A DNA stretch of 64,000 nucleotides from an uncultured Solirubrobacterales bacterium (lineage in GTDB: Bacteria > Actinomycetota > Thermoleophilia > Solirubrobacterales > 70-9): contig CAVZIP010000002.1 of assembly GCA_963775475.1 (NCBI GenBank), positions 25,609 through 89,608 of the forward strand, in the 5' to 3' direction. Each line of letters begins with the position of its first letter. The first letter of the stretch is position 1. Below the pieces are notes generated by a model. The model did no database searches. It worked only from the letters and a program-made list of their open reading frames with translations, and was not told the DNA's origin. This document shows, one piece after another, positions 15,013 to 27,800 of the stretch. The translations under genes were made by a program, and so were the position numbers.

Positions 15013-15801
15013 ATGTACGGCCGCCTCCCGATAGCGAAGATGCTCGCCGCCACGGCTGCGGGCACCGCGATTATTTCCGCCGTGATGATCCCGATCAACT
15101 GGGACGGCCAGCAGGCTTCGACGGCGGCGCCGAAGATCGACAACCTGCTCAACGTGATGATCGTCCTCTCCGCCTTCGTCTTCTCGCTGGTGATGGTGAT
15201 GCTCTTCTACGCGCTGTGGAAATTCAAAGCCAAGCCGGGCGACGAATCGGACGGCGAGCCGATCCACGGCAACACCCGGCTCGAGGTCGCCTGGACGCTG
15301 ATCCCGACGATCATCGTGCTCTTCGCCGGCGGCTACAGCTGGAAGGTGCTGGACGACATCGAAGAGCCGGCCAAGAACCCGCTGACCGTCTCCGTCTTCT
15401 CCCAGCAGTTCGCCTGGAGCTTCGCCTACCCGGGCAAAGGCTACGTCTGGAGCGAAGGCGAGCTGCACGTCCCCGTCGACCGCCAGGTCCACTTCAAGCT
15501 GCACGCCCTGGACGTGATCCACTCCTTCTGGGTCCCCGAGTGGCGGATCAAGAAAGACAACGTGCCGGGCATCACGACGACGGCGATCGTCACCCCGGAC
15601 AAGGTCGGCACCTACCAGCTCATCTGCACCGAGCTCTGCGGCTTCGGGCACTCTTCGATGCGGGCCAAAGTCGTCGTCGAGTCCCCGGCCGACTTCAACG
15701 AATGGGTCGCCGGCCTGGAGCAGAAAGTGCCGGCGCCGCTGATGGAAGTGGTTGCCGACGAGGAGAGCGACCCCACCCCCGTTGGCGCGGGCGGGGCATA
15801 G
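15013..15801 (+). CDS. ctaC: cytochrome c oxidase subunit II
   Basis: Two N-terminal TM helices, and a cupredoxin domain with the intact CuA motif DVIHSFWVPE...CTELCGFGHSSM. Confidence 0.9.
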   Translation: MYGRLPIAKMLAATAAGTAIISAVMIPINWDGQQASTAAPKIDNLLNVMIVLSAFVFSLVMVMLFYALWKFKAKPGDESDGEPIHGNTRLEVAWTLIPTIIVLFAGGYSWKVLDDIEEPAKNPLTVSVFSQQFAWSFAYPGKGYVWSEGELHVPVDRQVHFKLHALDVIHSFWVPEWRIKKDNVPGITTTAIVTPDKVGTYQLICTELCGFGHSSMRAKVVVESPADFNEWVAGLEQKVPAPLMEVVADEESDPTPVGAGGA

Positions 15802-15820: not shown

Positions 15821-17725
15821 ATGACGGCTGCGATCAAGCGACCGGGATGGATTCGAGGCGCGCTTGGCGCCCTCGCCGCTGGGGCATTCGGCTTTGGCCT
15901 GGTGATCGCGTTGCGGGCGATTTCCGACCTGCCGCTCTACCAGACCGAGCAGACCGGCTACCCGCATGTGGTCGTGCCGCTGATCCTCGCTCCGCTCGGC
16001 TTCCTCGCCGGCTTCGGCTGCTTCGACTACTGGCTGCGCTGGGCGATCGGCGCGCCGACGATCCCCGAGGACCACTCCCAGCACGGGGCGACGAGCTGGA
16101 AGGACTACTTCCGCTTCAACACCGATCACAAGGTGATCGGGATCCAGTACATCGTCACCACCTTCTTCTTCTTCTTCGTCGGCGGCCTGATGGCGATGCT
16201 GATCCGGGCCGAGCTGGCCCAGCCGGGCACCCAGATCGTCGACGCCGCCACCTACAACAGCCTCTTCTCCACCCACGCGGTGCTGATGATCTTCGTCTTC
16301 GTGATCCCGGTCTTCGCCGGCATCGCCAACTACGTGCTGCCGCTGATGATCGGCGCCCCGGACATGGCGTTCCCGCGCCTCAACGCGCTCAGCTTCTGGA
16401 TGCTGCCGCTGGCCGGGCTGATGTTCATCGGCAGCTTCCTGGCCCCCGGCGGCGCCTTCGACGCCGGCTGGACCGGCTACGCGCCGCTTTCCACCGGCGC
16501 CCCGTTAGGGCAGTCCTTCTTCAACCTCGGCGTCCAGTTCGCGGGCGCCTCCTCGATCGCGACCGCGCTCAACTTCCTGGTCACGATCATCACCATGCGT
16601 GCGCCCGGAATGACCTTCTGGCGGATGCCGCTGCTGGTCTGGGCGAACCTCTCGACCTCGCTGCTGGTCGTCGCCGCGACCCCGTTCATCGCCGGCGTCC
16701 AGTTCATGGTCCTCTTCGACCGCGTCCTCCACACCAACTTCTTCGACTTCGCGGCCGGCGGCGACGTCATCAGCTACCAGCACATCTTCTGGTTCTACTC
16801 GCACCCAGCCGTCTACATCATGATGCTGCCCGGCTTCGGGATCATCAGCGAGGTCATCTCGACCCACGCCCGCAAGCCGATCTTCGGCTACCGCTTGATG
16901 GCGCTGGCGCTGATCGGGATCGTCGTCCTCAGCTACTCGGTCTGGGCCCACCACATGTTCGTCGCCGGCATGTTCAGCTGGCTGCGGGTGCCGATGATGA
17001 TCACGACGCTGCTGATCGCGGTGCCGACCGGGATCAAGATCTTCTCCTGGCTGGGCACGCTCTACTTCGGCAAGATCCACACGTATTCGACGGCGATGCT
17101 GTTTGCGCTCGCCTTCATCGTCACCTTCACGATCGGCGGCATCAGCGGCGTCATGCTGGGCATGGTGCCGATCGACATCCACGTCTCCGACACCTACTTC
17201 ATCGTCGCCCACATCCACTTCGTCCTCTTCGGCGGCTCCGTCTTCACGATCTTCGCCGGGATCTACCACTGGTTCCCGAAGATGACCGGGCGCATGTACG
17301 ACGAGAAACTGGGCCGGGTCCACTTCTGGGGCACGCTGCTCGGCACCTGGGGCACCTTCGTCCCGATGCACTGGGTCGGCATGGACGGGATGCCGCGCCG
17401 CGTCGCCGACTACGCGACCCAGTTCGGCGAGTGGAACCTCTTGATCAGCGTCTTCGCCTTCATGCTCGGCGCCGCCCAGCTGGTCTTCCTCTACAACATG
17501 GTCGTCAGCTGGCGCTTCGGGCCGCGCGCCGAGGCCAACCCGTGGCGCGCCAACTCGATCGAGTGGCAGGTCTCCTCGCCGCCGCCGATCTTCAACTTCC
17601 CCGAGATCCCCCGCGTGGTCGGCGGTCCCTACGAGTTCGGCGTTCCCGGCGCCAAACACGCGATCATGCCCGGCGAAGGGGCCGAGGTGCCGGCGAAAGA
17701 GCCGAGCGTGGTGGGCTCGCCATGA
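15821..17725 (+). CDS. ctaD: cytochrome c oxidase subunit I (canonical)
   Basis: ATG at 15821 follows GGAGAGGA. All canonical ligand contexts are present: STHAVLMIF, WFYSHPAVYIMMLPGFG, WAHHMF, VAHIHFVLFGG. Confidence 0.95.
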   Translation: MTAAIKRPGWIRGALGALAAGAFGFGLVIALRAISDLPLYQTEQTGYPHVVVPLILAPLGFLAGFGCFDYWLRWAIGAPTIPEDHSQHGATSWKDYFRFNTDHKVIGIQYIVTTFFFFFVGGLMAMLIRAELAQPGTQIVDAATYNSLFSTHAVLMIFVFVIPVFAGIANYVLPLMIGAPDMAFPRLNALSFWMLPLAGLMFIGSFLAPGGAFDAGWTGYAPLSTGAPLGQSFFNLGVQFAGASSIATALNFLVTIITMRAPGMTFWRMPLLVWANLSTSLLVVAATPFIAGVQFMVLFDRVLHTNFFDFAAGGDVISYQHIFWFYSHPAVYIMMLPGFGIISEVISTHARKPIFGYRLMALALIGIVVLSYSVWAHHMFVAGMFSWLRVPMMITTLLIAVPTGIKIFSWLGTLYFGKIHTYSTAMLFALAFIVTFTIGGISGVMLGMVPIDIHVSDTYFIVAHIHFVLFGGSVFTIFAGIYHWFPKMTGRMYDEKLGRVHFWGTLLGTWGTFVPMHWVGMDGMPRRVADYATQFGEWNLLISVFAFMLGAAQLVFLYNMVVSWRFGPRAEANPWRANSIEWQVSSPPPIFNFPEIPRVVGGPYEFGVPGAKHAIMPGEGAEVPAKEPSVVGSP

Positions 17726-18598
17726 GCGAGGCGGATGAGGGCCGGCCGCTGCTGGTCTTCCTCAACGAGGTCGCCGGCGGCCGCAAGCTGCTGCAGGCGG
17801 TGCGCGAGCGCCAGGACGAGGTCTCCGGCGTGGTCGTCGCGGCGCCACAGAACGAGCCCGCCGTCGGCCAGCTGATCGACCCCGGCGAGCTGCGCGACGC
17901 CGCCCGCGCCCGGGTCGAGGTGACGATGGCGGTGCTGGCCGAGTTCGGCATCGACTCGGTCGGCGAGGTCTTGGACCCGGAGCCCTGCGCTGGCGCTCGA
18001 CGACGCCGTCCGCGCCCACGAGCCCGGCGAGGTGCTGCTGTCCTGCCTCTACGACACCCGCTTCGGCCTCACCCGCAAAGACCTGGTCGAGTGGGCGAAG
18101 GCGCAGCTCGAGCCCGACACGGAGGTGACCCACATCCCGGTCCGGATCGAAGACGACGCGATCCGCTGGGACGTGATCCACACCCTGGTCGTCGCGACTC
18201 AGACCGTCGCCACCCCCGACCTCGTCGAACGCCTGAGGGAGCGAGCCGCCGCCCGTCCCCACCGCTACACGATCATCTGCCCCCGCGCCGACGACGTCAG
18301 CGAGGCGGAGATCGTCCGCGACCTCGCCGCGACCCTGGCCGAGCTCTACAAGGCCGATATCGACGCGACCGGCCAGCCGATGAGCCCCGATCCCTTCCAG
18401 GCCGTGAAGAACGCGATCGAGCACTACCGGATCGACGAGGTCCTGATCTCGACCTTCGCCGGCGAGGACTCGCGCTGGCTCGAGGAGGACCTGATCGGCC
18501 GGGTGCGCGAGATCACCGAGAAGCAGGTCGAGCACATCGAGGTCGGCCGCCCGGCGGCCGCTGTCGCCGCCGCCGTGGCCGAGGGAGGGGAGGCCTGA
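17722..18598 (+). pseudogene. tandem USP-like (adenine nucleotide alpha-hydrolase-like) domain protein embedded in the cta operon, +1 frameshift near 17984-17988
   Basis: The ATG overlaps the ctaD stop (ATGA) and the stop overlaps the ctaE ATG. The first half, MSEADEGRPLLVFLNEVAGGRKLLQAV...GEVLDPEP, continues in the 18032 frame as ALALDDAVRAHEPGEVLLSCLYDTRFG.... The second half repeats the same pattern (IHTLVVATQTVATPDLVERL...IDEVLISTFAGEDSRWL). Length 877 nt. Confidence 0.65.
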
Positions 18599-19224
18599 TG
18601 GAGAGCGCTACCGTCGCCCTCGGGCACGCCGAAGAGCACGACCACCACGGCCCTCCGGAGGCCAACGAGAGCTCGCGCATCGACAAACAGACGCTGGGGA
18701 TCCTGCTCTTCATCGTCTCCGAGGTGATGCTGTTCGGCGCCTTCTTCGCTTCCTATTTCTTCCTCCGCGTCGTCGTCGCCCCCGAGAGCTGGCCCCCCGA
18801 CCCCTACGAGCTTCCGGTCGCCGTCGCCGGGATCAACACGGCGATCCTCGTCTCCTCCAGCTTCACGATCCACTACGCCCTGGAGTCGATCCGCCGCGGC
18901 AACCACGCCGGCCTCAAAATCGGCCTGTTCCTGACCTGGCTGCTGGGAGCGACCTTCCTCTTCATCCAGGTCAACGAGTACGTGCATATCGGCTTCAGCG
19001 CCCGTGACCTCGGCTTCGGCTCGATCTTCTACAGCCTCACCGGACTGCACGGAGCCCACGTCTTCGTCGGCCTGCTGCTGCTCACCTTCGCGACGATCCG
19101 CGCCTTCCGCGGGCACTTCGGCCCGGCGGCCAAGGACCACCTCGGTGTCGAGGTGCCGGGGATCTACTGGCACTTCGTCGACATTATGTGGATCATCGTC
19201 TACGTCACGGTGTACATCCTTTAG
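18598..19224 (+). CDS. ctaE: cytochrome c oxidase subunit III
   Basis: 208 aa, ...FIVSEVMLFGAFFASYF...YSLTGLHGAHVFVGLLLL...YWHFVDIMWIIVYVTVYIL, a typical subunit III. Confidence 0.9.
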   Translation: MESATVALGHAEEHDHHGPPEANESSRIDKQTLGILLFIVSEVMLFGAFFASYFFLRVVVAPESWPPDPYELPVAVAGINTAILVSSSFTIHYALESIRRGNHAGLKIGLFLTWLLGATFLFIQVNEYVHIGFSARDLGFGSIFYSLTGLHGAHVFVGLLLLTFATIRAFRGHFGPAAKDHLGVEVPGIYWHFVDIMWIIVYVTVYIL

Positions 19225-20660: not shown

Positions 20661-21638
20661 CTAGAGGGCGCCGGCGGTGGCCGATGCGGCGCGGTCGGGC
20701 TGCTCGCCCACGCCGGCGGCCCTGTCCCGTGGCTCCAGCCGCCCGGCGGCGGCGACCGTCCACAGCATCGCCAGCCAGTTCAGCGTGGCCAGGGCGACAT
20801 GGACCCAGACGATCTCACTGGGCAGCTCCAGCCCCCACTGGACGCCGCCTATGACGCCCTGGAGGGCGAGGAGGCTCAGGACCACGGTCAGGGGCCTGAC
20901 AGCGCGCCTGTCGCCGCCAGGGCGGCGCAGAAGGAACCAGACGGCGATCGCCGCAAAGCCGTAGAGGGCCGCGATTCCGGCGTGACGCTGGACCACCCAT
21001 TCCAGCGTCTCCCCGCCCTGAAAGTCGAAGCGGTGGACGAGCTCGCCTTCGTGGGCGCCGGCGTGCGGTCCGGAGGCGGTGGCGATCGTCCCGGCCAGGA
21101 TCGTCAGCTGGCCAAGCGGGATCAGCGCTCGCACCGACCAGACGCCGAGTCGGTCGCTGGAGCGCCGCCGCTCCCACGGCTCATAGCGCGAGCACCAGGC
21201 GAGGGCGAAGGCCGCGTCGAGCAGCATCATCGAGAGGATGAAATGGGACATCACCAGGCCCGGGGCGAGGTGGTGCTTGACGACGAGGGCGCCGAGAATC
21301 GCTTGGCCGAGCACGCCCAGCGGCAGCAGGGCGCCGAACAGGGCCAGGTGCCAGCGGTAGGGCACGCGGAAGAAGGCGAGGGCGCAGGCGGCGATCACGG
21401 CGAACCCGACGAACCCGGTCAGCAGCCGGTTGCCGTACTCGATCACCGCGTGGGTCTCGAGCGGCGGGGTGGTGCCGCCGTAGCATTTGGGCCAGTCCGG
21501 GCAGCCGAGGCCGGAGCCGGTCAGCCGCACCGCGGCGCCGGTGAGGACGATCAGCGCCAGGGCGGCCAGGGCCACCGCGGTGACCTGCGCGTAGCGGTGG
21601 GGGGAGATCGCGAGGCGGGCTTTGAGTCGTTGCCGCAT
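20661..21638 (-). CDS. ctaA: heme A synthase (COX15/CtaA)
   Basis: 325 aa, TGSGLGCPDWPKCYG, with a multi-TM His-containing pattern typical of CtaA. Confidence 0.9.
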   Translation of the reverse strand: MRQRLKARLAISPHRYAQVTAVALAALALIVLTGAAVRLTGSGLGCPDWPKCYGGTTPPLETHAVIEYGNRLLTGFVGFAVIAACALAFFRVPYRWHLALFGALLPLGVLGQAILGALVVKHHLAPGLVMSHFILSMMLLDAAFALAWCSRYEPWERRRSSDRLGVWSVRALIPLGQLTILAGTIATASGPHAGAHEGELVHRFDFQGGETLEWVVQRHAGIAALYGFAAIAVWFLLRRPGGDRRAVRPLTVVLSLLALQGVIGGVQWGLELPSEIVWVHVALATLNWLAMLWTVAAAGRLEPRDRAAGVGEQPDRAASATAGAL

Positions 21639-21675: not shown

Positions 21676-22386
21676 TCAGCCGGCCTGGGCTTTCGAGCCG
21701 GCGGATTTGCCGCCGGAGGTGCTTTCGATCAGGTATGCGACGAGGTCTTCGAGTTCTTTCGGCGACAGCGTGTCCGCATAGGTCGCCGGCATCACGTTGG
21801 CCGGATAGCCTTTGGCGATCACTTTGTTCGGATCGACGATGTCCTCCTCGATCGTCGCCGCGCTCTGGCCGGGCAGGACTTCGTCGAGGTTGGGCCCGGT
21901 GACGCCACCCGATTTCGCCTCGGCCAGGGTGTGGCAGCCGCCGCAGCCGTTGTTGGCGAAGACCTGAGCGCCGGGGCCGCCGGGAACTTTGGGAGGGGCC
22001 GCGCCTGGAACGCCGGCGTACATGCCGATGTAGGCGGCGACATCGTCGAGGTCCTGCCCGGTGACGATGTCGGCGGGCATCGAGACCGCGGGATTGTCGG
22101 TGCTGGGGCGGGGGAACTCGACCTGGGCCTTGACGATCCCTTCGATCGTGTCGCTGTTCTGGCCCGATTCGCGGGCGGAGGCGAAGGCGTGGTCGAGATC
22201 GGGGCCGATCTGAGCCGTCGTCCCGGCCTGGGCGAAGGCATGGCAGGTACCGCACTTTTGTATGAAGAGGACGCGACCGCGAGTCTCGTCGGCGGTGGTC
22301 GTGCCGCAGCCGGAGACGACCATGACGACGCCCACGAGGGCGGCAAGGGCGAGCAGCGGGCGGATGAGTTGCGAGGGACTGTGCAT
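21676..22386 (-). CDS. di-heme c-type cytochrome, lipoprotein
   Basis: Two CxxCH motifs (CGTCH, CGGCH). Lipobox-like VVSGCG after the signal peptide when started at ATG 22386 (MHSPSQLIRPLLALAALVGVVMVVSGC). Confidence 0.85.
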   Translation of the reverse strand: MHSPSQLIRPLLALAALVGVVMVVSGCGTTTADETRGRVLFIQKCGTCHAFAQAGTTAQIGPDLDHAFASARESGQNSDTIEGIVKAQVEFPRPSTDNPAVSMPADIVTGQDLDDVAAYIGMYAGVPGAAPPKVPGGPGAQVFANNGCGGCHTLAEAKSGGVTGPNLDEVLPGQSAATIEEDIVDPNKVIAKGYPANVMPATYADTLSPKELEDLVAYLIESTSGGKSAGSKAQAG

Positions 22387-22505
22387 ACGGCTGGCGGCGG
22401 GCCGGAGTCTATATGTCGAGGCAGCCCGAAAGCGTCCTGTCGGCGGTCGCGATTGGAGTAATCTTGCAGCGATTCGCACTATCTCCAGAGGCTGCCCAAA
22501 GGAGG

Positions 22506-22913
22506 ATGCCGATGCAGGTGAGGGACGGGATGTCGGAGGTGTCGTTGACGGTCGGTCCTTCGCACACGTTGCGCGAAGCCGCCACGATGATGGTCGAGAA
22601 GGGCACCGGGGCGGCCCTCGTCAACGACGCCGAGTCGCCGACGCCTGGCATCGTCACCGAGCGCGATCTGCTGGTCTCGGTCGGCGCCGGCGAGGATCCC
22701 GACGTGGAGCTGGTCGGCGACCACATGAGCGAGGGCGTGATCGCCGCGGCGCCGGACTGGAGCCTGGAGCGCGCCGCCGCCGAGATGTCTCGCCGCGGCG
22801 TCCGCCACCTGGTCGTCTTCGAGGGTCCCGACCCGGTCGGCGTCCTCTCGATGCGCGACATCGTCCGCGTCTGGACCTCAGAGGGTGCGACCTCAGGCAT
22901 GACGCCCGGCTGA
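22506..22913 (+). CDS. CBS domain-containing protein
   Basis: ATG at 22506 preceded by AAAGGAGG. A CBS pair (...GIVTERDLL... and ...VRHLVVFEGPDPVGVLSMRDIV). Confidence 0.8.
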   Translation: MPMQVRDGMSEVSLTVGPSHTLREAATMMVEKGTGAALVNDAESPTPGIVTERDLLVSVGAGEDPDVELVGDHMSEGVIAAAPDWSLERAAAEMSRRGVRHLVVFEGPDPVGVLSMRDIVRVWTSEGATSGMTPG

Positions 22914-22922
22914 GCGCAGCCG

Positions 22923-23216
22923 CTAGGCCTTGGGAGGAACGGTGATCGTCTCGACCGGCAGGGCGGCGCTGCGGACCTTCTGCCGGCGGGGCAGTCGGTA
23001 GTAGTCGCGGATCGCGCCGCGGACGATGCTGCGGAAGGCGGCGAGGGCGATGATCGCGCCGGTGATTCCGTAGATGTAGGGCGCGAAGATGAAGCCGGAG
23101 GCGAAGGTGCCGCAGACCAAGCCGACGACGCCGAGGGCGAGGAAGAGCGGTGCCCAGGAGGACTTCGGCGGGTAGATCAGCTCGCCGGGCTCGGGGACGT
23201 GTCGGTGGTCGCTCAT
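22923..23216 (-). CDS. hypothetical two-TM membrane protein at the end of the ctaB operon
   Basis: 97 aa, ...WAPLFLALGVVGLVCGTFASGFIFAPYIYGITGAIIALAAF.... Same strand as ctaB and downstream of it. A role as an oxidase small subunit is speculation only. Confidence 0.55.
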   Translation of the reverse strand: MSDHRHVPEPGELIYPPKSSWAPLFLALGVVGLVCGTFASGFIFAPYIYGITGAIIALAAFRSIVRGAIRDYYRLPRRQKVRSAALPVETITVPPKA

Positions 23217-23459
23217 CTCGCTACTGGGCGATGTAGAGGAGGGCGGCGACGAAGCAGAGGGCGAAGACCGTTGCGGACAGCGCCCCGGCGGTCAGCCCGG
23301 CGCTCATGCTCTTCCGTGCGGTCTCGCGATCCACGGCTCGGATTTGTATCAGGCTGCTAAGAGGCTCGGATTTTGGGATGGGGAGTGGCACCCGACCCTC
23401 CGACCGATTCCCAGCTCCAAATTCAGAAAGCGATGCAGCCCTCCCGGCCTCGAACTGTT

Positions 23460-24383
23460 CTAGGCGTTGGCGTCGATCGCCATCGCCAGGAACAGCAGCG
23501 CCAGGTACGCAAGCGAGAAGAGGTACGTGCGCAACGCCCACTTCCGATCCGCCGTCCGCCACAGCTTCGTTGCGAAGCCGATGAAGACGGCGCCGAGCAG
23601 CATCGAGGGGACCAGGTAGGCGACGCCGAGGCCGCCGGCGCAGAAGGGCAGCTGCGTGACCGCGTAGAGGAGGACGGTGTAGAGGAGGATCTGGCGCCGC
23701 GTCTCCTCCTCGCCCCGGACGACCGGCAGCATCGGGATGCCGGCCTTCGCGTACTCGTCCTTCATCAGCAGCGAGAGCGCCCAGAAGTGGGGCGGCGTCC
23801 AGAAGAAGACGATCGCGAAGAGATAGAAGGCCATGCCGCTGAGCTCGCCGGTGACCGCCGCCCAGGCGACCAGCGGCGGCACCGCGCCGGCGGCGCCGCC
23901 GATGACGATGTTCTGCGGCGTCGTGCGCTTGAGCCAGAGCGTGTAGACGAAGACGTAGCCGAACAGGCCGGAGAGCGAGAGGGCGGCCGCCAGCGGGTTG
24001 ACGGTCAGGGCCAGCAGGGCGAAGGAGGCGCAGCCGAGCAGGGCGCCGAAGGCGATCGCGGCGCGGGCGGAGATCCTGCCCGAGGCGACGGGGCGGTCGG
24101 CGGTGCGCGCCATCGTGCGGTCGATGTCGCGGTCGACGGCGTGGTTGATCGCCCCGGCTCCGCCGGCCGAGAGGGCGCCGCCGAGGCAGGTGAGGAAGAT
24201 CAGGCCGAGCGAGGGGTCGCCGGCGACGTACATCGTCGTCACCGTCGTGAACAGCAGCAGCGACTGCACCTTCGGCTTGGTCAGCGTCAGGTAGTCGCGG
24301 ACCACCGCCATCGCGGCGGAGTGCGGAGCAGGGGTGGCTGCGGTCGGGGTGGGCGCGGTGGGTGCGCCGGCGCCGGGTGGCAT
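23460..24383 (-). CDS. ctaB: protoheme IX farnesyltransferase (heme O synthase)
   Basis: ...LTKPKVQSLLLFTT...GAGAINHAVDRDIDRTMARTADRPV...WTPPHFWALSL... ATG at 24383 lies 6 nt after the upstream stop. Alternative ATG at 24311. Confidence 0.9.
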   Translation of the reverse strand: MPPGAGAPTAPTPTAATPAPHSAAMAVVRDYLTLTKPKVQSLLLFTTVTTMYVAGDPSLGLIFLTCLGGALSAGGAGAINHAVDRDIDRTMARTADRPVASGRISARAAIAFGALLGCASFALLALTVNPLAAALSLSGLFGYVFVYTLWLKRTTPQNIVIGGAAGAVPPLVAWAAVTGELSGMAFYLFAIVFFWTPPHFWALSLLMKDEYAKAGIPMLPVVRGEEETRRQILLYTVLLYAVTQLPFCAGGLGVAYLVPSMLLGAVFIGFATKLWRTADRKWALRTYLFSLAYLALLFLAMAIDANA

Positions 24384-24388
24384 TCCGC

Positions 24389-26072
24389 TCAGGCTACCGG
24401 CTGCGACTCGCGCGCCGATGCCTCGGGACGGCTGGTGCGGTGGGCGATCGCGGCGCGGATGTCGTGCATCGGGTGGGCGCTGCGGACGTCGGGCACGACG
24501 TCGAAGTTGTGCGGCTCCGGCGGCGACAGGGCGAACCACTCGAGCGACTCGCCGCCCCACGGGTCATGCCCCGCCACGGGGCCGTTGACGCGGCTCTGGA
24601 TCGCGTTGACCAGCGTCATCACGATCCCGGCGGCAAGGACCAGGGTGCCGATCGAGGCGATCAGGTTGTAGGCGTTGACGCCGGTGCCGTCGAAGAACTT
24701 GTAGGCGTCGATCACCTGGCCCTCGAGGCCACCGGCGAAGAAGAGCGGGACGAAGGCGAGGACGAGGCCCAGCGCCGTGGTCCAGAAGGAGATGCGGGCG
24801 AGGCTCTCGCCCATCGTGCGGCCGGTCATCTTCGGGAACCAGTAGTGAAGGGCGGCGAAGCCGCCGAAGACGGCGCCGCCGACCAGCGCGAAGTGGGTCG
24901 ACGCGGTGGCGTCGGTGGTGTTCTTGAGCTGCCAGGCGGCGGCCACCATCGAGTGCGAGAGCTCGCCCGCGAGGCCGATCGAGATCGCCGAGAGCGCCCC
25001 GACCGCGTACAGCAGCGGCGCCCGCATCCGCAGCGCGCCGCCGGCCATCGTCGCGATCAGGTTGAAGAAGATCAGGCCGAAGGGGACGATCAGCGCCAGC
25101 GACATCAGCGTCGCGAAGTACATCCAGCCGATGCCGATCGGTGCCGTCAGCATGTTCTGCATCCAGGCGAGGGTGCCGAGCACGGCGATCGCGACCATCG
25201 ATCCCATCACGACGCCGCGGTTGAGGAGCGGCCTGCCGGAGAAGCGCGGCGACGATTTCGGCGATCGCGCCGAGGGCGAAGATCAGGATCAGCATGTAGG
25301 CGCCGGAGAAGAAGATCCAGCTCAGGTGCTGCCAGAGCAGCGGCGCGCCGCCGGAGCCGTCGGCGAAGAAGATGCCGTCGTAGTTGCGGTCGATCATCAG
25401 CATCGTCAGCGCCGCGAGGAGAACCGGGCCGATCGCGAGCACCAGCCAACAGCTGACCGCCGCCGCCCAGGCGAAGACCGGCACGCGGCGCCAGGCCATG
25501 CCCGGCGCCCGCACGTTGCGCAGCGTCGCCAGCAGGTCGATCGCGAGGAAGACGAAGCCGAGCGTGCAGAGTCCGGTCGCCGCGGCCCAGGCATCGACGC
25601 CGTTGCTGGAGAGGAAGGTGAGCTCGGTCAGCGGCGCCAGCGGGTTGACCCCGGCCTCCGACGGGGTGAAGAGGAAGCCGGCGTAGAACACGATCGTCCC
25701 GGCGGCCCACAGCGCCACGCCGATCTGGCCGAGGCGGGGCAGGGCGGTGCCGCGGGCGCCGATCTGCAGCGGCGTCACGTAGTAGAAGAGACCGAGCGCC
25801 AGCGGGAGCGCGAAGAAGAAGACGGCGGTGGCTCCGTAGGTGGAGAGCATCCGGTTGAAGGTGACCGGCGAGAGGAAGGTGTTCTCGGGGATCGCCAGCT
25901 GCAACCGCATCAGCAGCAGCTCGATCAGGGCGAGGAAGAGGAAGCCGAGCGCGCCGCAGACGAGGATCCGGCCGAGGTCCTTGTGGTCGGCTCTGGTCGT
26001 CAGCTCGATCCAGCGCGGGCGCCGCTTGGGAAAGCCGTCGACGACCAGCTCGGGGCGCGGTTTCTCGCTCAT
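24389..26072 (-). pseudogene. heme-copper oxidase subunit I-like protein lacking most metal ligands, +1 frameshift near 25241-25250
   Basis: Clear collinear similarity to CtaD over 12 TM helices, but ligand contexts read STYGATAVF, WIFFSGAYMLIL, AWMQNML and ASTHFALVGG. The N-terminal part (to ...GAIAEIVAA) is in the 24564..26072 frame. The continuation (FSGRPLLNRGVVMGSMVAIAVLG...) is in the 24389..25210 frame. Length 1684 nt. Confidence 0.8.
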
Positions 26073-26767
26073 GGGACCTTGCCGCTCTCGATCAAGCCGA
26101 CGACGCGGTCCTGGGCGGCCTCGATATCGGCTTTCTGCTGTTTGACGAAGTCTTCGTAGGCCTGCGGCGAGACGACCTCGACCGCGGTCCGCATCGAGGC
26201 GTAGGCCTGGCCCGAGAGGGTTGCCGACTCGCCGCCATAGGTGCCTTCTTCGTCGGCCCGGAAGAGGACCTCGTTGACCTTGCCGGGGACCGCGTCGCGC
26301 TTGCCGGAGAGGTCGGGGACGTTCCAGGTGTGGACGACGTCGGTCGAGAGCAGTTCCAGCTTGACCGCGGTATCGACCGGAACCACGAGCTTGTAGTAGG
26401 AGAAGGCGTCGTTGGGGTAGTCATAGCGCCACACCCACTGCTGGCCGGTGGCCCGGATCGTCAGCGGCTCGGTTTTGGCCGCGGCGAGTCCGGCGGCGCC
26501 GGGGGCGGGCGTCTCGCGCGCCTTGCCGGTGAAGATGACGCTGACGACGAAGATCGCGGCGGCGAAGACGGTGAGGAGGGCTCCGACCCGGAACTGGAGC
26601 CGCCGGCCGCCGCCGGTCTCGCTCGGGGCGGTGCCGCGCTTGGCACGGTTCCGGCGCAGCGCGTAGAGCAGCGCGACGTTGATCGCGACGACAATGATGG
26701 CCGCGGCGACGAAGCCGATCCAAAGCAGGGTGTCGATCTGGTCAGTGCCAGGGGAGTGCGGCGTCAA
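26069..26767 (-). CDS. cytochrome oxidase subunit II-like protein lacking CuA ligands
   Basis: Two N-terminal TM helices plus a cupredoxin-like domain (DVVHTWNVPDLSGKRDAVPGK). The CuA site reads GESATLSGQAYASM instead of CxExCxxxHxxM. The stop overlaps the start of the subunit I-like gene. Confidence 0.8.
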   Translation of the reverse strand: MTPHSPGTDQIDTLLWIGFVAAAIIVVAINVALLYALRRNRAKRGTAPSETGGGRRLQFRVGALLTVFAAAIFVVSVIFTGKARETPAPGAAGLAAAKTEPLTIRATGQQWVWRYDYPNDAFSYYKLVVPVDTAVKLELLSTDVVHTWNVPDLSGKRDAVPGKVNEVLFRADEEGTYGGESATLSGQAYASMRTAVEVVSPQAYEDFVKQQKADIEAAQDRVVGLIESGKVP

Positions 26768-26855
26768 AGCGCGGCCATTCTAATCACGTGGAAGACGTCC
26801 AAGGCGGCGTGCCGCCGCTCCCGCTACCGGGTCCCTACCTATACTCGCCGACCCT

Positions 26856-27800
26856 ATGGGCAGGCGCTCCAGGCCATCACCCGCACTGCGACTCGCGGTA
26901 CGGGCCGGGGCGGCGGGCATCGTCGGGGCCGCCTTCGCGGTTCCGCTCCTGCGCAAGCGCCTGCGGATCCCGGCCCCGGTGACGGTCGCCGCCTGCGCCG
27001 GCGGCCCGCTCGCGCTCGCCGTGCTCTACCCGCGCTCGAAGAAGCGCGACGTCGCCCTCTACGCGCTGCAGATGTGGGCCTTCACGATGGCGCACGAGAT
27101 CCCGTACGACGATCCGGAGGCGCTGCGCCGACGCCTGCGCAGCCGCTACCCGATCGCCGTCGACCGGCTCGTCGGCGGCGGTCAGCTGCCGAACGTGCGG
27201 CTGCAGCGCGCGCTCTCGCGCCTGCCCCGGAACGGCGCCGTCAACCGCTTCCTCACCTGGGTCCACTGGCTCTGGTTCGTCGAGCCCTACCTGGCGCTGG
27301 TCCTGATCCTGCTGCGCGACAACGAGCGCTTCCCCCGCGCCGCCCGTCAGATGGCGGTCGTCTTCGACCTCGGCTGCGCCGTCTACTTCGCGCTGCCGAC
27401 GGCGCCGCCCTGGTGGGCCTCCGAGGAGGGCGTGACCGACGAAGAGGTGCGGCGGATCATGGTCGAGGTCGGCGAAGGCACCTGGCGCTCGGCCTGGCCG
27501 GCGATGTACGGAGCTCTCGGCGGCAACCCCTGGGCGGCGATGCCGTCGCTGCATTTCGCCACCTCGGTGACCGCCGCCCTCTCGCTGGCCGAGGCCGGCA
27601 AGGTCGAGGGGGCGATCGGCTGGGGCTACGCGGGAACGCTCGGCTTCGCCCTCGTCTACCTCGGCGAGCACTACGTGACCGACCTGATCGCCGGGGCGGC
27701 GTTGGTGGCCCTGGTCAGGCGCGGCGAGCCGCTCGCCGAACCGCTCGTGCACGGCGTCAATCGTGCCCTTCGTCGCTTGGAGCGCCTGGCGAACGGGTAG
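26856..27800 (+). CDS. PAP2 superfamily (PAP2_3-like) membrane phosphatase/phosphotransferase
   Basis: 314 aa, polytopic, with C-terminal motifs PSLHFATS and GEHYVTD typical of PAP2-type enzymes. Confidence 0.75.
   Translation: MGRRSRPSPALRLAVRAGAAGIVGAAFAVPLLRKRLRIPAPVTVAACAGGPLALAVLYPRSKKRDVALYALQMWAFTMAHEIPYDDPEALRRRLRSRYPIAVDRLVGGGQLPNVRLQRALSRLPRNGAVNRFLTWVHWLWFVEPYLALVLILLRDNERFPRAARQMAVVFDLGCAVYFALPTAPPWWASEEGVTDEEVRRIMVEVGEGTWRSAWPAMYGALGGNPWAAMPSLHFATSVTAALSLAEAGKVEGAIGWGYAGTLGFALVYLGEHYVTDLIAGAALVALVRRGEPLAEPLVHGVNRALRRLERLANG

Follow-up and report, generated by a model that had tools for sequence, protein, structure and literature searches.

The gene pair and its relation to heme-copper oxidases

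The 64,000-nucleotide window analysed here (contig CAVZIP010000002.1, uncultured Solirubrobacterales bacterium) contains two pairs of genes for subunits I and II of heme-copper oxidases (HCOs). The canonical pair, CtaC and CtaD, served as internal reference. The second pair (CtaC2/CtaD2) is located approximately 5 kb away, directly upstream of the heme O synthase gene ctaB, and comprises a subunit II-like and a subunit I-like gene in which nearly all ligands of the redox metals are replaced. Coordinates are given in Table 1. In the following, class 1 refers to loci with the ligand-free ("dead") pair, and class 2 to loci with the same synteny and a fully liganded oxidase. The open reading frames were found as first described, including the overlap (ATGA) between the stop codon of the subunit II-like gene and the ATG of the subunit I-like gene. 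The spacer between the stop codon of the latter and the ctaB start codon (ATG at 24383) is 5 nt, not 6 nt as counted in the original prediction. The subunit I-like protein comprises 560 aa once one inserted base is removed from its reading frame (26072..24389, minus strand).

Against Pfam COX1 (PF00115), the subunit I-like protein scored 273.6 bits over its full length (E 4e-81, cutoff 34.8), compared with 500 bits for canonical CtaD. Against NCBIfam models it reached 355.5 bits with TIGR02891 (cutoff 670.75), 310 bits with NF050116 for actinobacterial aa3 oxidases (cutoff 880), and 328.7 and 297.1 bits with the quinol-oxidase models QoxB (cutoff 1015.5) and CyoB (cutoff 1020), respectively. 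Its score is thus under the equivalog threshold for an A-family oxygen reductase. The subunit II-like protein has two N-terminal transmembrane (TM) helices followed by a cupredoxin domain. It scored 72.6 bits against COX2 (PF00116, cutoff 22) and 135.4 bits against TIGR02866 (CoxB), which is under the cutoff of 147.7, with 6-201 of 202 model positions aligned. COX2 domain and TM hairpin place it among the oxidase subunits II.

The predicted collinearity with the canonical pair was recovered by BLASTP, with 30% identity (E 2e-64) across 515 residues for subunit I and 29% identity (E 6e-25) for subunit II. In a phmmer search of PDB sequences, the best matches of the subunit I-like protein were CtaD of M. 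smegmatis, M. tuberculosis and C. glutamicum, QoxB of B. subtilis and the caa3 oxidase of T. thermophilus (E 1e-77 to 1e-73). The alignment to M. smegmatis CtaD (6ADQ_F, E 4e-77) had a register identical to that of the BLASTP alignment.

For structural comparison, an AlphaFold2 model of a homologue with 90% identity to the window protein (P0002, 561 aa) was used. The model has a mean predicted local distance difference test score (pLDDT) of 84.3, a predicted TM-score (pTM) of 0.88 and 12 long TM helices. Foldseek matched it to actinobacterial supercomplex CtaD, the R. sphaeroides and P. denitrificans oxidases and cytochrome bo3 in the PDB, with TM-scores of 0.84-0.89 and, for most, a root-mean-square deviation of about 2.5 Å. 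According to this model, the 12-helix oxidase fold is retained in the subunit I-like protein, which together with the PF00115 homology places it in the subunit I family of the heme-copper superfamily.

The closest structurally characterised relatives are CtaD and CtaC of actinobacterial aa3 oxidases (M. smegmatis 6ADQ/6HWH, C. glutamicum 7Q21), with about 30% identity, E of about 1e-77 and TM-scores of 0.88-0.89. Both systems have a 12-TM subunit I and a subunit II with two TM helices and a cupredoxin domain, and they have the loops PLxIGAR..A.PR, RAPGM, YWFPKMTGR and DPW..SLEW..SPP.HNF in common. Unlike these oxidases, the window pair is without the three CuB His, the heme a3 His, the helix II His, the Tyr, the D- and K-channels, the Arg pair and the CuA Cys-Cys-His set.

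Loss of ligands, proton channels and the CuA site

For residue comparison, 45 class-1 members were aligned with 24 intact paralogues, 12 canonical CtaD proteins (11 from the retrieved loci and that of the window) and 9 outgroup oxidases. The ligand register agreed in three independent alignments and was as originally proposed, with five of the six His ligands of subunit I replaced in the window. The heme a His of helix II is Y79, the CuB His of helix VI is S256, the CuB His-His pair of helix VII is Q305-N306 and the heme a3 His of helix X is S391. The Tyr cross-linked in active oxidases is M260. In bovine numbering, N80/D91/N98 of the D-channel read Y/G/G, T316/K319 of the K-channel read F/I, Glu242 is Ala, and the Arg pair R438/R439 that anchors the heme propionates is I454/D455. 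The second heme a His of helix X is present as H393, in line with the earlier observation; it is not conserved across class 1, however, and is best regarded as a relic.

Across the 45 class-1 sequences, the former CuB His-His pair is Q in 44 and N in all 45, and the first CuB His is T or S in 44. The heme a3 position is A, D, T, S or E, the helix II position Y, F, A or G, and the second helix X position H, F, G, L, A or another residue, so that no ligand His is conserved throughout. The cross-linked Tyr is replaced by Met, Val or Leu, Lys319 by I, L or V, D91 by G, S or R, and the Arg pair reads V, I or A followed by D in 44 of 45. Class 2 and the canonical proteins retain all channel residues. 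Only H30 and H249 are conserved His residues of the family, and both are non-ligand residues in real oxidases too. A single base change suffices to turn His into Gln, Asn or Tyr, or Cys into Ser; even so, the replacements remained fixed while identity fell to 42%.

In subunit II, the reported exchanges of two CuA Cys for Ser and of one His for Tyr were located at S181, S185 and Y189, with H146 and M192 kept. The CuA pattern H..C.E.C...H..M thus reads H146..S181.T.S185...Y189..M192. In the ligand table of 46 loci, class 1 reads H, S/A, S, Y, M throughout, whereas class 2 reads H, C, C, H, M. The Trp of electron entry is variable in class 1.

A subunit II devoid of CuA is also found in E. coli cytochrome bo3 (cyoABCDE), whose operon includes a heme O synthase gene, and the bo3 structures 1FFT and 7CUB were among the sequence and structure matches. 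The CuA loss of the pair would fit a quinol oxidase. However, the six His ligands and the two proton channels are all intact in CyoB, which belongs to a working oxidase, whereas here subunit I is stripped as well. In HCOs of the nitric oxide reductase type, FeB is ligated by three His (plus Glu), and both hemes have His ligands; no His at these positions is conserved across class 1. In gNOR and nitric oxide dismutase-type HCOs only single ligands are replaced, whereas class 1 replaces all. Together, the replacements show a pair that, as judged from its residues, would be unable to bind the canonical cofactors, transfer electrons, reduce O2 or pump protons by known paths.

It was considered whether the pair is still redox-active or metal-binding through unconventional ligands, namely a heme between His393 and Tyr79, Cu(I) at M304-x-x-M307, and a mononuclear site of H146, Y189 and M192 in subunit II. 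Y79 and H393 are conserved in the subclade of the window (Y in 30 of 45, H in 27 of 45), M304 is family-specific and M307 conserved, and the subunit II His, Tyr and Met are conserved across class 1. We nevertheless regard this as very unlikely. The helix II/helix X positions are occupied by F/F, G/G, A/L, A/I and other combinations across the family, so His393 appears to be a leftover specific to the window's subclade, with no ligand function. The Arg pair has become a hydrophobic residue and Asp, and an Asp at the former propionate position argues against any heme. The electron-entry Trp of subunit II is not maintained, the only conserved His residues are H30 and H249, and two borderline homologues (P0128 and P0137, see below) keep different leftover His residues, as drifting relics would. 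A conserved alternative set of His, Cys or Met ligands at the metal sites, the finding that would have spoken against the original prediction, was looked for across the family and not found. A hemophore-like His393/Tyr79 heme site was likewise discarded as a family feature, given the variable positions and the x-Asp replacement of the Arg pair.

At the former CuB and propionate region, a polar/Met cluster is invariant (T/S256, M304-Q305-N306-M307 and D455; minus strand, 25305..25307, 25154..25159 and 24707..24709). It may form a new binding site.

Distribution and selection

When one genome per GTDB species was scanned with a profile, 80 loci were obtained. The pair was present in the same order in 45 of these and in the closest long contig, L001, which amounts to 46 species-level genomes. 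All carriers are metagenome-assembled genomes (MAGs) labelled Solirubrobacterales, Thermoleophilia, Actinomycetes, Conexibacter or Conexibacteraceae. In class 1, a divergent PAP2 gene is followed by the subunit II-like gene, the subunit I-like gene and ctaB. Identity to the window subunit I-like protein ranged from 91% down to 45%, and the lowest pairwise value within class 1 was 42%.

Ratios of nonsynonymous to synonymous substitution rates (dN/dS) were calculated for closest pairs by the Nei-Gojobori method with bootstrap. They were 0.18-0.33 for the subunit I-like gene (bootstrap 97.5th percentile at most 0.45), 0.28-0.54 for the subunit II-like gene and 0.12-0.36 for the neighbours ctaB, ctaA and PAP2. 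At 114 positions, residues were conserved in at least 93% of the 45 sequences; 95 of these are common to real oxidases and 19 are family-specific. Compared with the live paralogue by column entropy, the most relaxed segments are TM6 and loops II-III, VI-VII and IX-X, segments that formerly housed CuB, the Mg site, the entrance of the D-channel and the Glu and Tyr residues. Constraint on the remaining extramembrane loops and on the C-terminal domain matches that in the live paralogue. On this evidence, the pattern marks a protein that was retained for shape and surfaces and not for chemistry.

The frame of the subunit I-like gene changes (+1) after the codon ending at 25245, where ...AIAEIVAA is followed, in the new frame, by FSGRPLLNRG... 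up to the stop at 24389. More than 100 homologues with 83-90% identity are intact at 558-562 aa, and the aligned ones read AEIVAAFSGRPLL across the site. Relative to L001 (90% nucleotide identity), the run gccgcgc is longer by one base, and no further indel disturbs the frame. GC content at third codon positions (GC3) is 0.96 on either side of the shift, so that the GC3 bias is preserved as originally stated, and dN/dS downstream of it (0.20-0.32) is not raised relative to control pairs (0.19-0.39). At least three further single-site frame changes were seen in conserved genes of the window by GC3 frame plot and translations: in a gene resembling tandem universal stress proteins between ctaD and ctaE (~17,985, plus strand), in an amidase-like gene (~10,700, minus) and in a membrane protein gene (~47,680, plus). 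Because of these other shifts, the one at 25245, which would have counted against the original prediction if real in an unexpressed gene, is most likely an assembly indel and not biological; a very recent real mutation is less likely. Several related MAGs show similar splits in several operon genes.

These data bear on whether the pair is a neutral relic or pseudogene, kept open by ctaB read-through or translational coupling and already broken here by the frameshift. The apparent shift, the short spacer to ctaB and a dN/dS somewhat above that of the neighbours would agree with such a relic, which we nonetheless consider highly improbable. Coupling preserves an open frame, not amino acids, yet the low dN/dS values and the conserved positions show constraint on the amino acids themselves; coupling as the sole cause of retention was therefore dismissed. 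The subunit I-like gene gave a single full-length high-scoring segment pair in 42 of 46 loci, and the four split cases are MAGs with isolate names of the form MFD..., whose operons contain further split genes. In deeper lineages ctaA, not ctaB, follows the gene. Scattered stops or frameshifts and a dN/dS near 1, as expected of a decaying pseudogene, were not observed, nor were the random substitutions and relaxed selection that the original prediction had named as evidence against itself, since the His-His to Gln-Asn exchange is conserved. Its claim of a maintained unit with heme O synthase is therefore upheld, and the pair is judged, from the substitution pattern, to be under purifying selection and not decaying.

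Origin from a second oxidase

At 24 other Thermoleophilia loci (L047-L069 and L073; Thermoleophilaceae, Solirubrobacteraceae, Paraconexibacter), the same flanks enclose a fully liganded A1-type pair. The common synteny is PAP2, subunit II, subunit I, [ctaA], ctaB, CBS. The class-2 operon ctaC2-ctaD2-(ctaA)-ctaB occupies the same position as the dead pair, with PAP2 and LPG-synthase upstream, ctaB and CBS downstream and the canonical oxidase nearby. In contrast to the dead pair, it has all catalytic residues and is its live counterpart. Its subunit I retains all ligands, channel residues, Glu242, Tyr and the Arg pair in 24 of 24 cases, and CuA is complete in 23 of 23 subunits II. Identity of class-2 subunit I is 44-50% to the canonical CtaD of the window and 36-41% to its dead protein. 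Dead and live versions in one genome bin were not encountered among the retrieved loci.

Since the same synteny holds a live A1-type pair in sister lineages, the dead pair descends from a real second oxidase: judged by gene order, it is the positional orthologue of a genuine second A1-type oxidase and did not arise by recent duplication of the canonical A2-type pair. In a neighbour-joining tree, class 1 was monophyletic on a long stem. This tree was dropped as proof that class 1 nests in class 2, given the long branch and an uninformative midpoint root; as it cannot place the root, the origin is argued from synteny. The distribution of the replacements shows, as far as present-day sequences allow the ancestor to be reconstructed, that the redox-metal sites of both subunits were lost together in the ancestor of one large Solirubrobacterales clade.

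P0128 (L085 4303-6027) has the same Thermoleophilia synteny and is intermediate. It keeps the helix II His and the first CuB His; its His-His pair is L-R, and the helix X His residues are Y and G. P0128 and P0137 score only marginally higher with the class-1 hidden Markov model (HMM) than with the real-oxidase HMM. Their different leftover His residues are as expected if ligand positions drifted after loss of function.

One of the class-2 loci, L047 (CAMCVN010000003.1), is labelled "MAG: Bifidobacterium breve" but carries a Thermoleophilia-type oxidase locus (PAP2, ctaC2, ctaD2, ctaB, canonical ctaCD). L048 ("Actinomycetes bacterium") has nearly the same sequence; the L047 contig has probably been mislabelled or contaminates its bin.

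Linkage to heme a synthesis and other degenerate lineages

The neighbouring ctaB exceeds the NCBIfam thresholds for heme O synthase (NF003349, 361.5 bits, cutoff 246; TIGR01473, 334.6 bits, cutoff 210.3). A ctaB gene lies 3' of the pair in every class-1 locus with enough downstream sequence. In deeper class-1 lineages and several class-2 loci (ORFs of L028 and L050), ctaA is located between the subunit I gene and ctaB, and in the window's subclade it lies 2-3 kb further downstream.

For a survey of degenerate COX1 proteins, the 150 best cluster representatives from a search of 1.8 billion proteins were aligned to the real-oxidase profile. About 40 full-length homologues among these 150 were without at least one ligand. 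HMM score differences and pairwise identities, by which independence was judged, indicate that most of them arose independently of class 1. Gene context was sought for 11 and was usable for 9, which is a small and non-random sample. Five of the nine adjoin a heme O synthase or UbiA-family gene (P0160, P0178, P0157, P0169 and P0128), and in the four for which DNA was available (all but P0169) the neighbour passes the NCBIfam heme O synthase cutoffs. P0160 (L082 6001-7677) lies in the order ctaA, ctaB, dead COX1, COX3, followed further on by a canonical caa3 operon; it keeps both low-spin heme His residues, and its CuB and heme a3 ligands are absent. P0178 (L086 6001-7641) and P0157 (L088 1729-3366) have the order COX2, COX1, ctaB, and P0169 is followed by a UbiA-family gene. 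In comparison, ctaB was found within 6 kb of 2 of 10 intact outgroup oxidases. In a sample of this size and kind, the comparison is suggestive only.

P0201 (L091 6001-7668, GCA_039809495.1) has one CuB His replaced by Gln and the heme a3 His by Ala. It is encoded after alternative complex III (ActC/ActD-like) genes together with weak COX2, COX3 and COX4 homologues, and on this context is another kind of degenerate oxidase. A "GAR" motif in loop II-III was rejected as a shared derived character of degenerate COX1 proteins, as many fully liganded oxidases carry GARD.

Proposed role of the pair

We think it probable that the pair is a catalytically dead, almost certainly cofactor-free remnant of a second aa3-type (A1) oxidase, which mimics apo subunits I and II for CtaB and CtaA. 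Both subunits have lost their redox-metal sites, and subunit I also both proton channels and the heme-propionate anchors. Both folds appear to be retained, under purifying selection, in an operon with heme O synthase and in many lineages also heme A synthase. In this model, the pair would permanently imitate the unhemylated assembly intermediate of subunits I and II and, as gene order suggests, may serve as a docking or activating platform, or as a regulator, for CtaB and CtaA, which would supply heme a to the canonical oxidase. The scaffold, channel or assembly-factor role contemplated in the original prediction is likewise an inference.

Dead enzyme homologues are kept as structural subunits in the case of the Core 1 and Core 2 proteins of the mitochondrial bc1 complex, which derive from processing peptidases. 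As in the pair, an enzyme fold was kept in a respiratory context after loss of catalysis. Unlike the pair, these proteins belong to an unrelated family and to a larger complex, whereas the pair is known here from its genes. A functional precedent may be found in yeast, where apo-Cox1 assembly intermediates trigger oligomerisation of the heme O synthase Cox10 (PMC7140478). Taken as a working analogy, this would be a case of unhemylated subunit I partnering heme O/A synthases. In yeast, apo-Cox1 is a transient state of a real subunit, whereas here the apo state would be hard-wired in a separate gene.

Several observations weigh against a mimic acting on CtaB and CtaA. The partnership is drawn from gene order only, and since oxidase operons often carry ctaB, the adjacency could be inherited and not functional. 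In the sequence available around P0201, P0194, P0221 and P0202, no ctaB was found; P0194 lies beside a caa3 operon, and P0221 and P0202 are on short contigs. With a dN/dS some 1.5-2 times as high as in ctaB and ctaA, the subunit I-like gene is under real but weaker constraint. The carriers are all MAGs, four of them with split genes. A pure scaffold role also leaves the invariant polar cluster (T/S256, M304, Q305, N306, D455) unexplained.

This cluster is the starting point for a different explanation, by which the pair was repurposed outside heme a synthesis as an ion or proton leak channel or transporter, or as a structural or regulatory subunit of the bcc-aa3 supercomplex, with the polar residues at the old binuclear centre as a new site. 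The family-specific invariant M304, Q305, N306 and D455 do sit, with T/S256, at the former CuB and propionate positions, fold and extramembrane surfaces are conserved, and the nearest structural relatives are supercomplex-forming CtaD proteins. On the other hand, neither known proton pathway survives, a new chain of conserved protonatable residues was not apparent, the genes are linked to ctaB/ctaA and not to qcr or transporter genes, and the ctaB adjacency of independent degenerate lineages would go unexplained. We consider such repurposing unlikely.

The proposed mimicry of apo subunits could be extended to other bacteria, which would have repeatedly turned a spare oxidase into a cofactor-free subunit I/II copy that docks, activates or gates heme O/A synthases. 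Solirubrobacterales would then represent the most extreme case, beside at least three other independent degenerate lineages next to ctaB. We put this forward tentatively and regard it as rather unlikely.

In the source annotations, the subunit I-like proteins carry generic names ("heme/copper-type cytochrome/quinol oxidase subunit 1" or, at NCBI, "cbb3-type cytochrome c oxidase subunit I"), and no Pfam or NCBIfam model specific for the dead pair was found. No prior description of a ligand-free subunit I, of pseudo-oxidases or of Solirubrobacterales oxidases of this kind was found in the full-text literature, in which subscription journals are only partly covered, so that absence is no proof. 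A family free of ligands, channels and CuA and conserved in dozens of species points to a second, non-redox use of the oxidase fold. Its current annotation as oxidase subunit I inflates the respiratory capacity inferred for Thermoleophilia, which are abundant in soil. Should the link to CtaB and CtaA prove functional, the elusive apo intermediate of subunit I could be studied through the pair as a stable and isolatable substitute.

Gene layout of the window

Table 1. Features of the dead pair and of neighbouring genes in the window.
Feature	Coordinates	Strand	Basis or remark
Subunit II-like gene (CtaC2), 232 aa, TTG start	26069..26767	-	Pfam COX2, TIGR02866, alignment to window CtaC
Subunit I-like gene (CtaD2), N-terminal 276 codons (M1..A276)	25245..26072	-	ORF reading, BLASTP to CtaD
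Y79, former heme a His	25838..25836	-	
S256, former CuB His	25307..25305	-	
Single extra base in run gccgcgc	25244..25244	-	Intact homologues read AEIVAAFSGRP here
Subunit I-like gene, C-terminal 284 codons and stop (F277..A560)	24389..25243	-	
Q305-N306, former CuB His-His	25159..25154	-	
S391, former heme a3 His	24901..24899	-	
H393, relic heme a His	24895..24893	-	
D455, former propionate Arg	24709..24707	-	
ctaB, heme O synthase, 307 aa	23460..24383	-	NCBIfam NF003349, TIGR01473
Small membrane protein, 97 aa, apparently two TM segments	22923..23216	-	Downstream of ctaB
Cytochrome c, two CxxCH (CGTCH, CGGCH)	~21676..22479	-	Translation; upstream of ctaA
ctaA, heme A synthase	20661..21638	-	Pfam COX15-CtaA 93 bits
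Canonical CtaC, complete CuA site	15013..15801	+	
Canonical CtaD, A2-type (YSHPAVY), all ligands present	15821..17725	+	Pfam COX1 500 bits
Canonical subunit III, CtaE	18598..19224	+	Translation; tblastn conservation in loci
PAP2-family gene, divergent	26856..27800	+	Pfam PAP2_3; tblastn across loci

The PAP2 gene is the upstream synteny anchor common to dead-pair and live-oxidase loci. A scan of 22800-27000 for promoters and terminators gave no visible signal on the minus strand.

By tblastn, the 97-aa membrane protein is kept 3' of ctaB in nearly all class-1 loci (31-83% identity) and is barely detectable in class-2 loci. It may be a member of the operon, as an extra subunit or partner. The cytochrome c gene has an uncertain start codon and encodes a Cys-containing N-terminal signal region, and its product is possibly a lipoprotein; the syntenic gene of L001 matches PF00034.

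The C-terminus of the subunit I-like protein (24389..24410, minus strand) reads ...QPVA, and most of class 1 has a conserved ...(Q/E/A/S)PVA-COOH there. Some live paralogues also have QPVA-like strings close to their C-terminus. The COX1 domain of canonical CtaD is preceded by an N-terminal extension of roughly 100 aa (15821..16130, plus strand) with apparently two extra hydrophobic segments; the Pfam match begins at residue 129.

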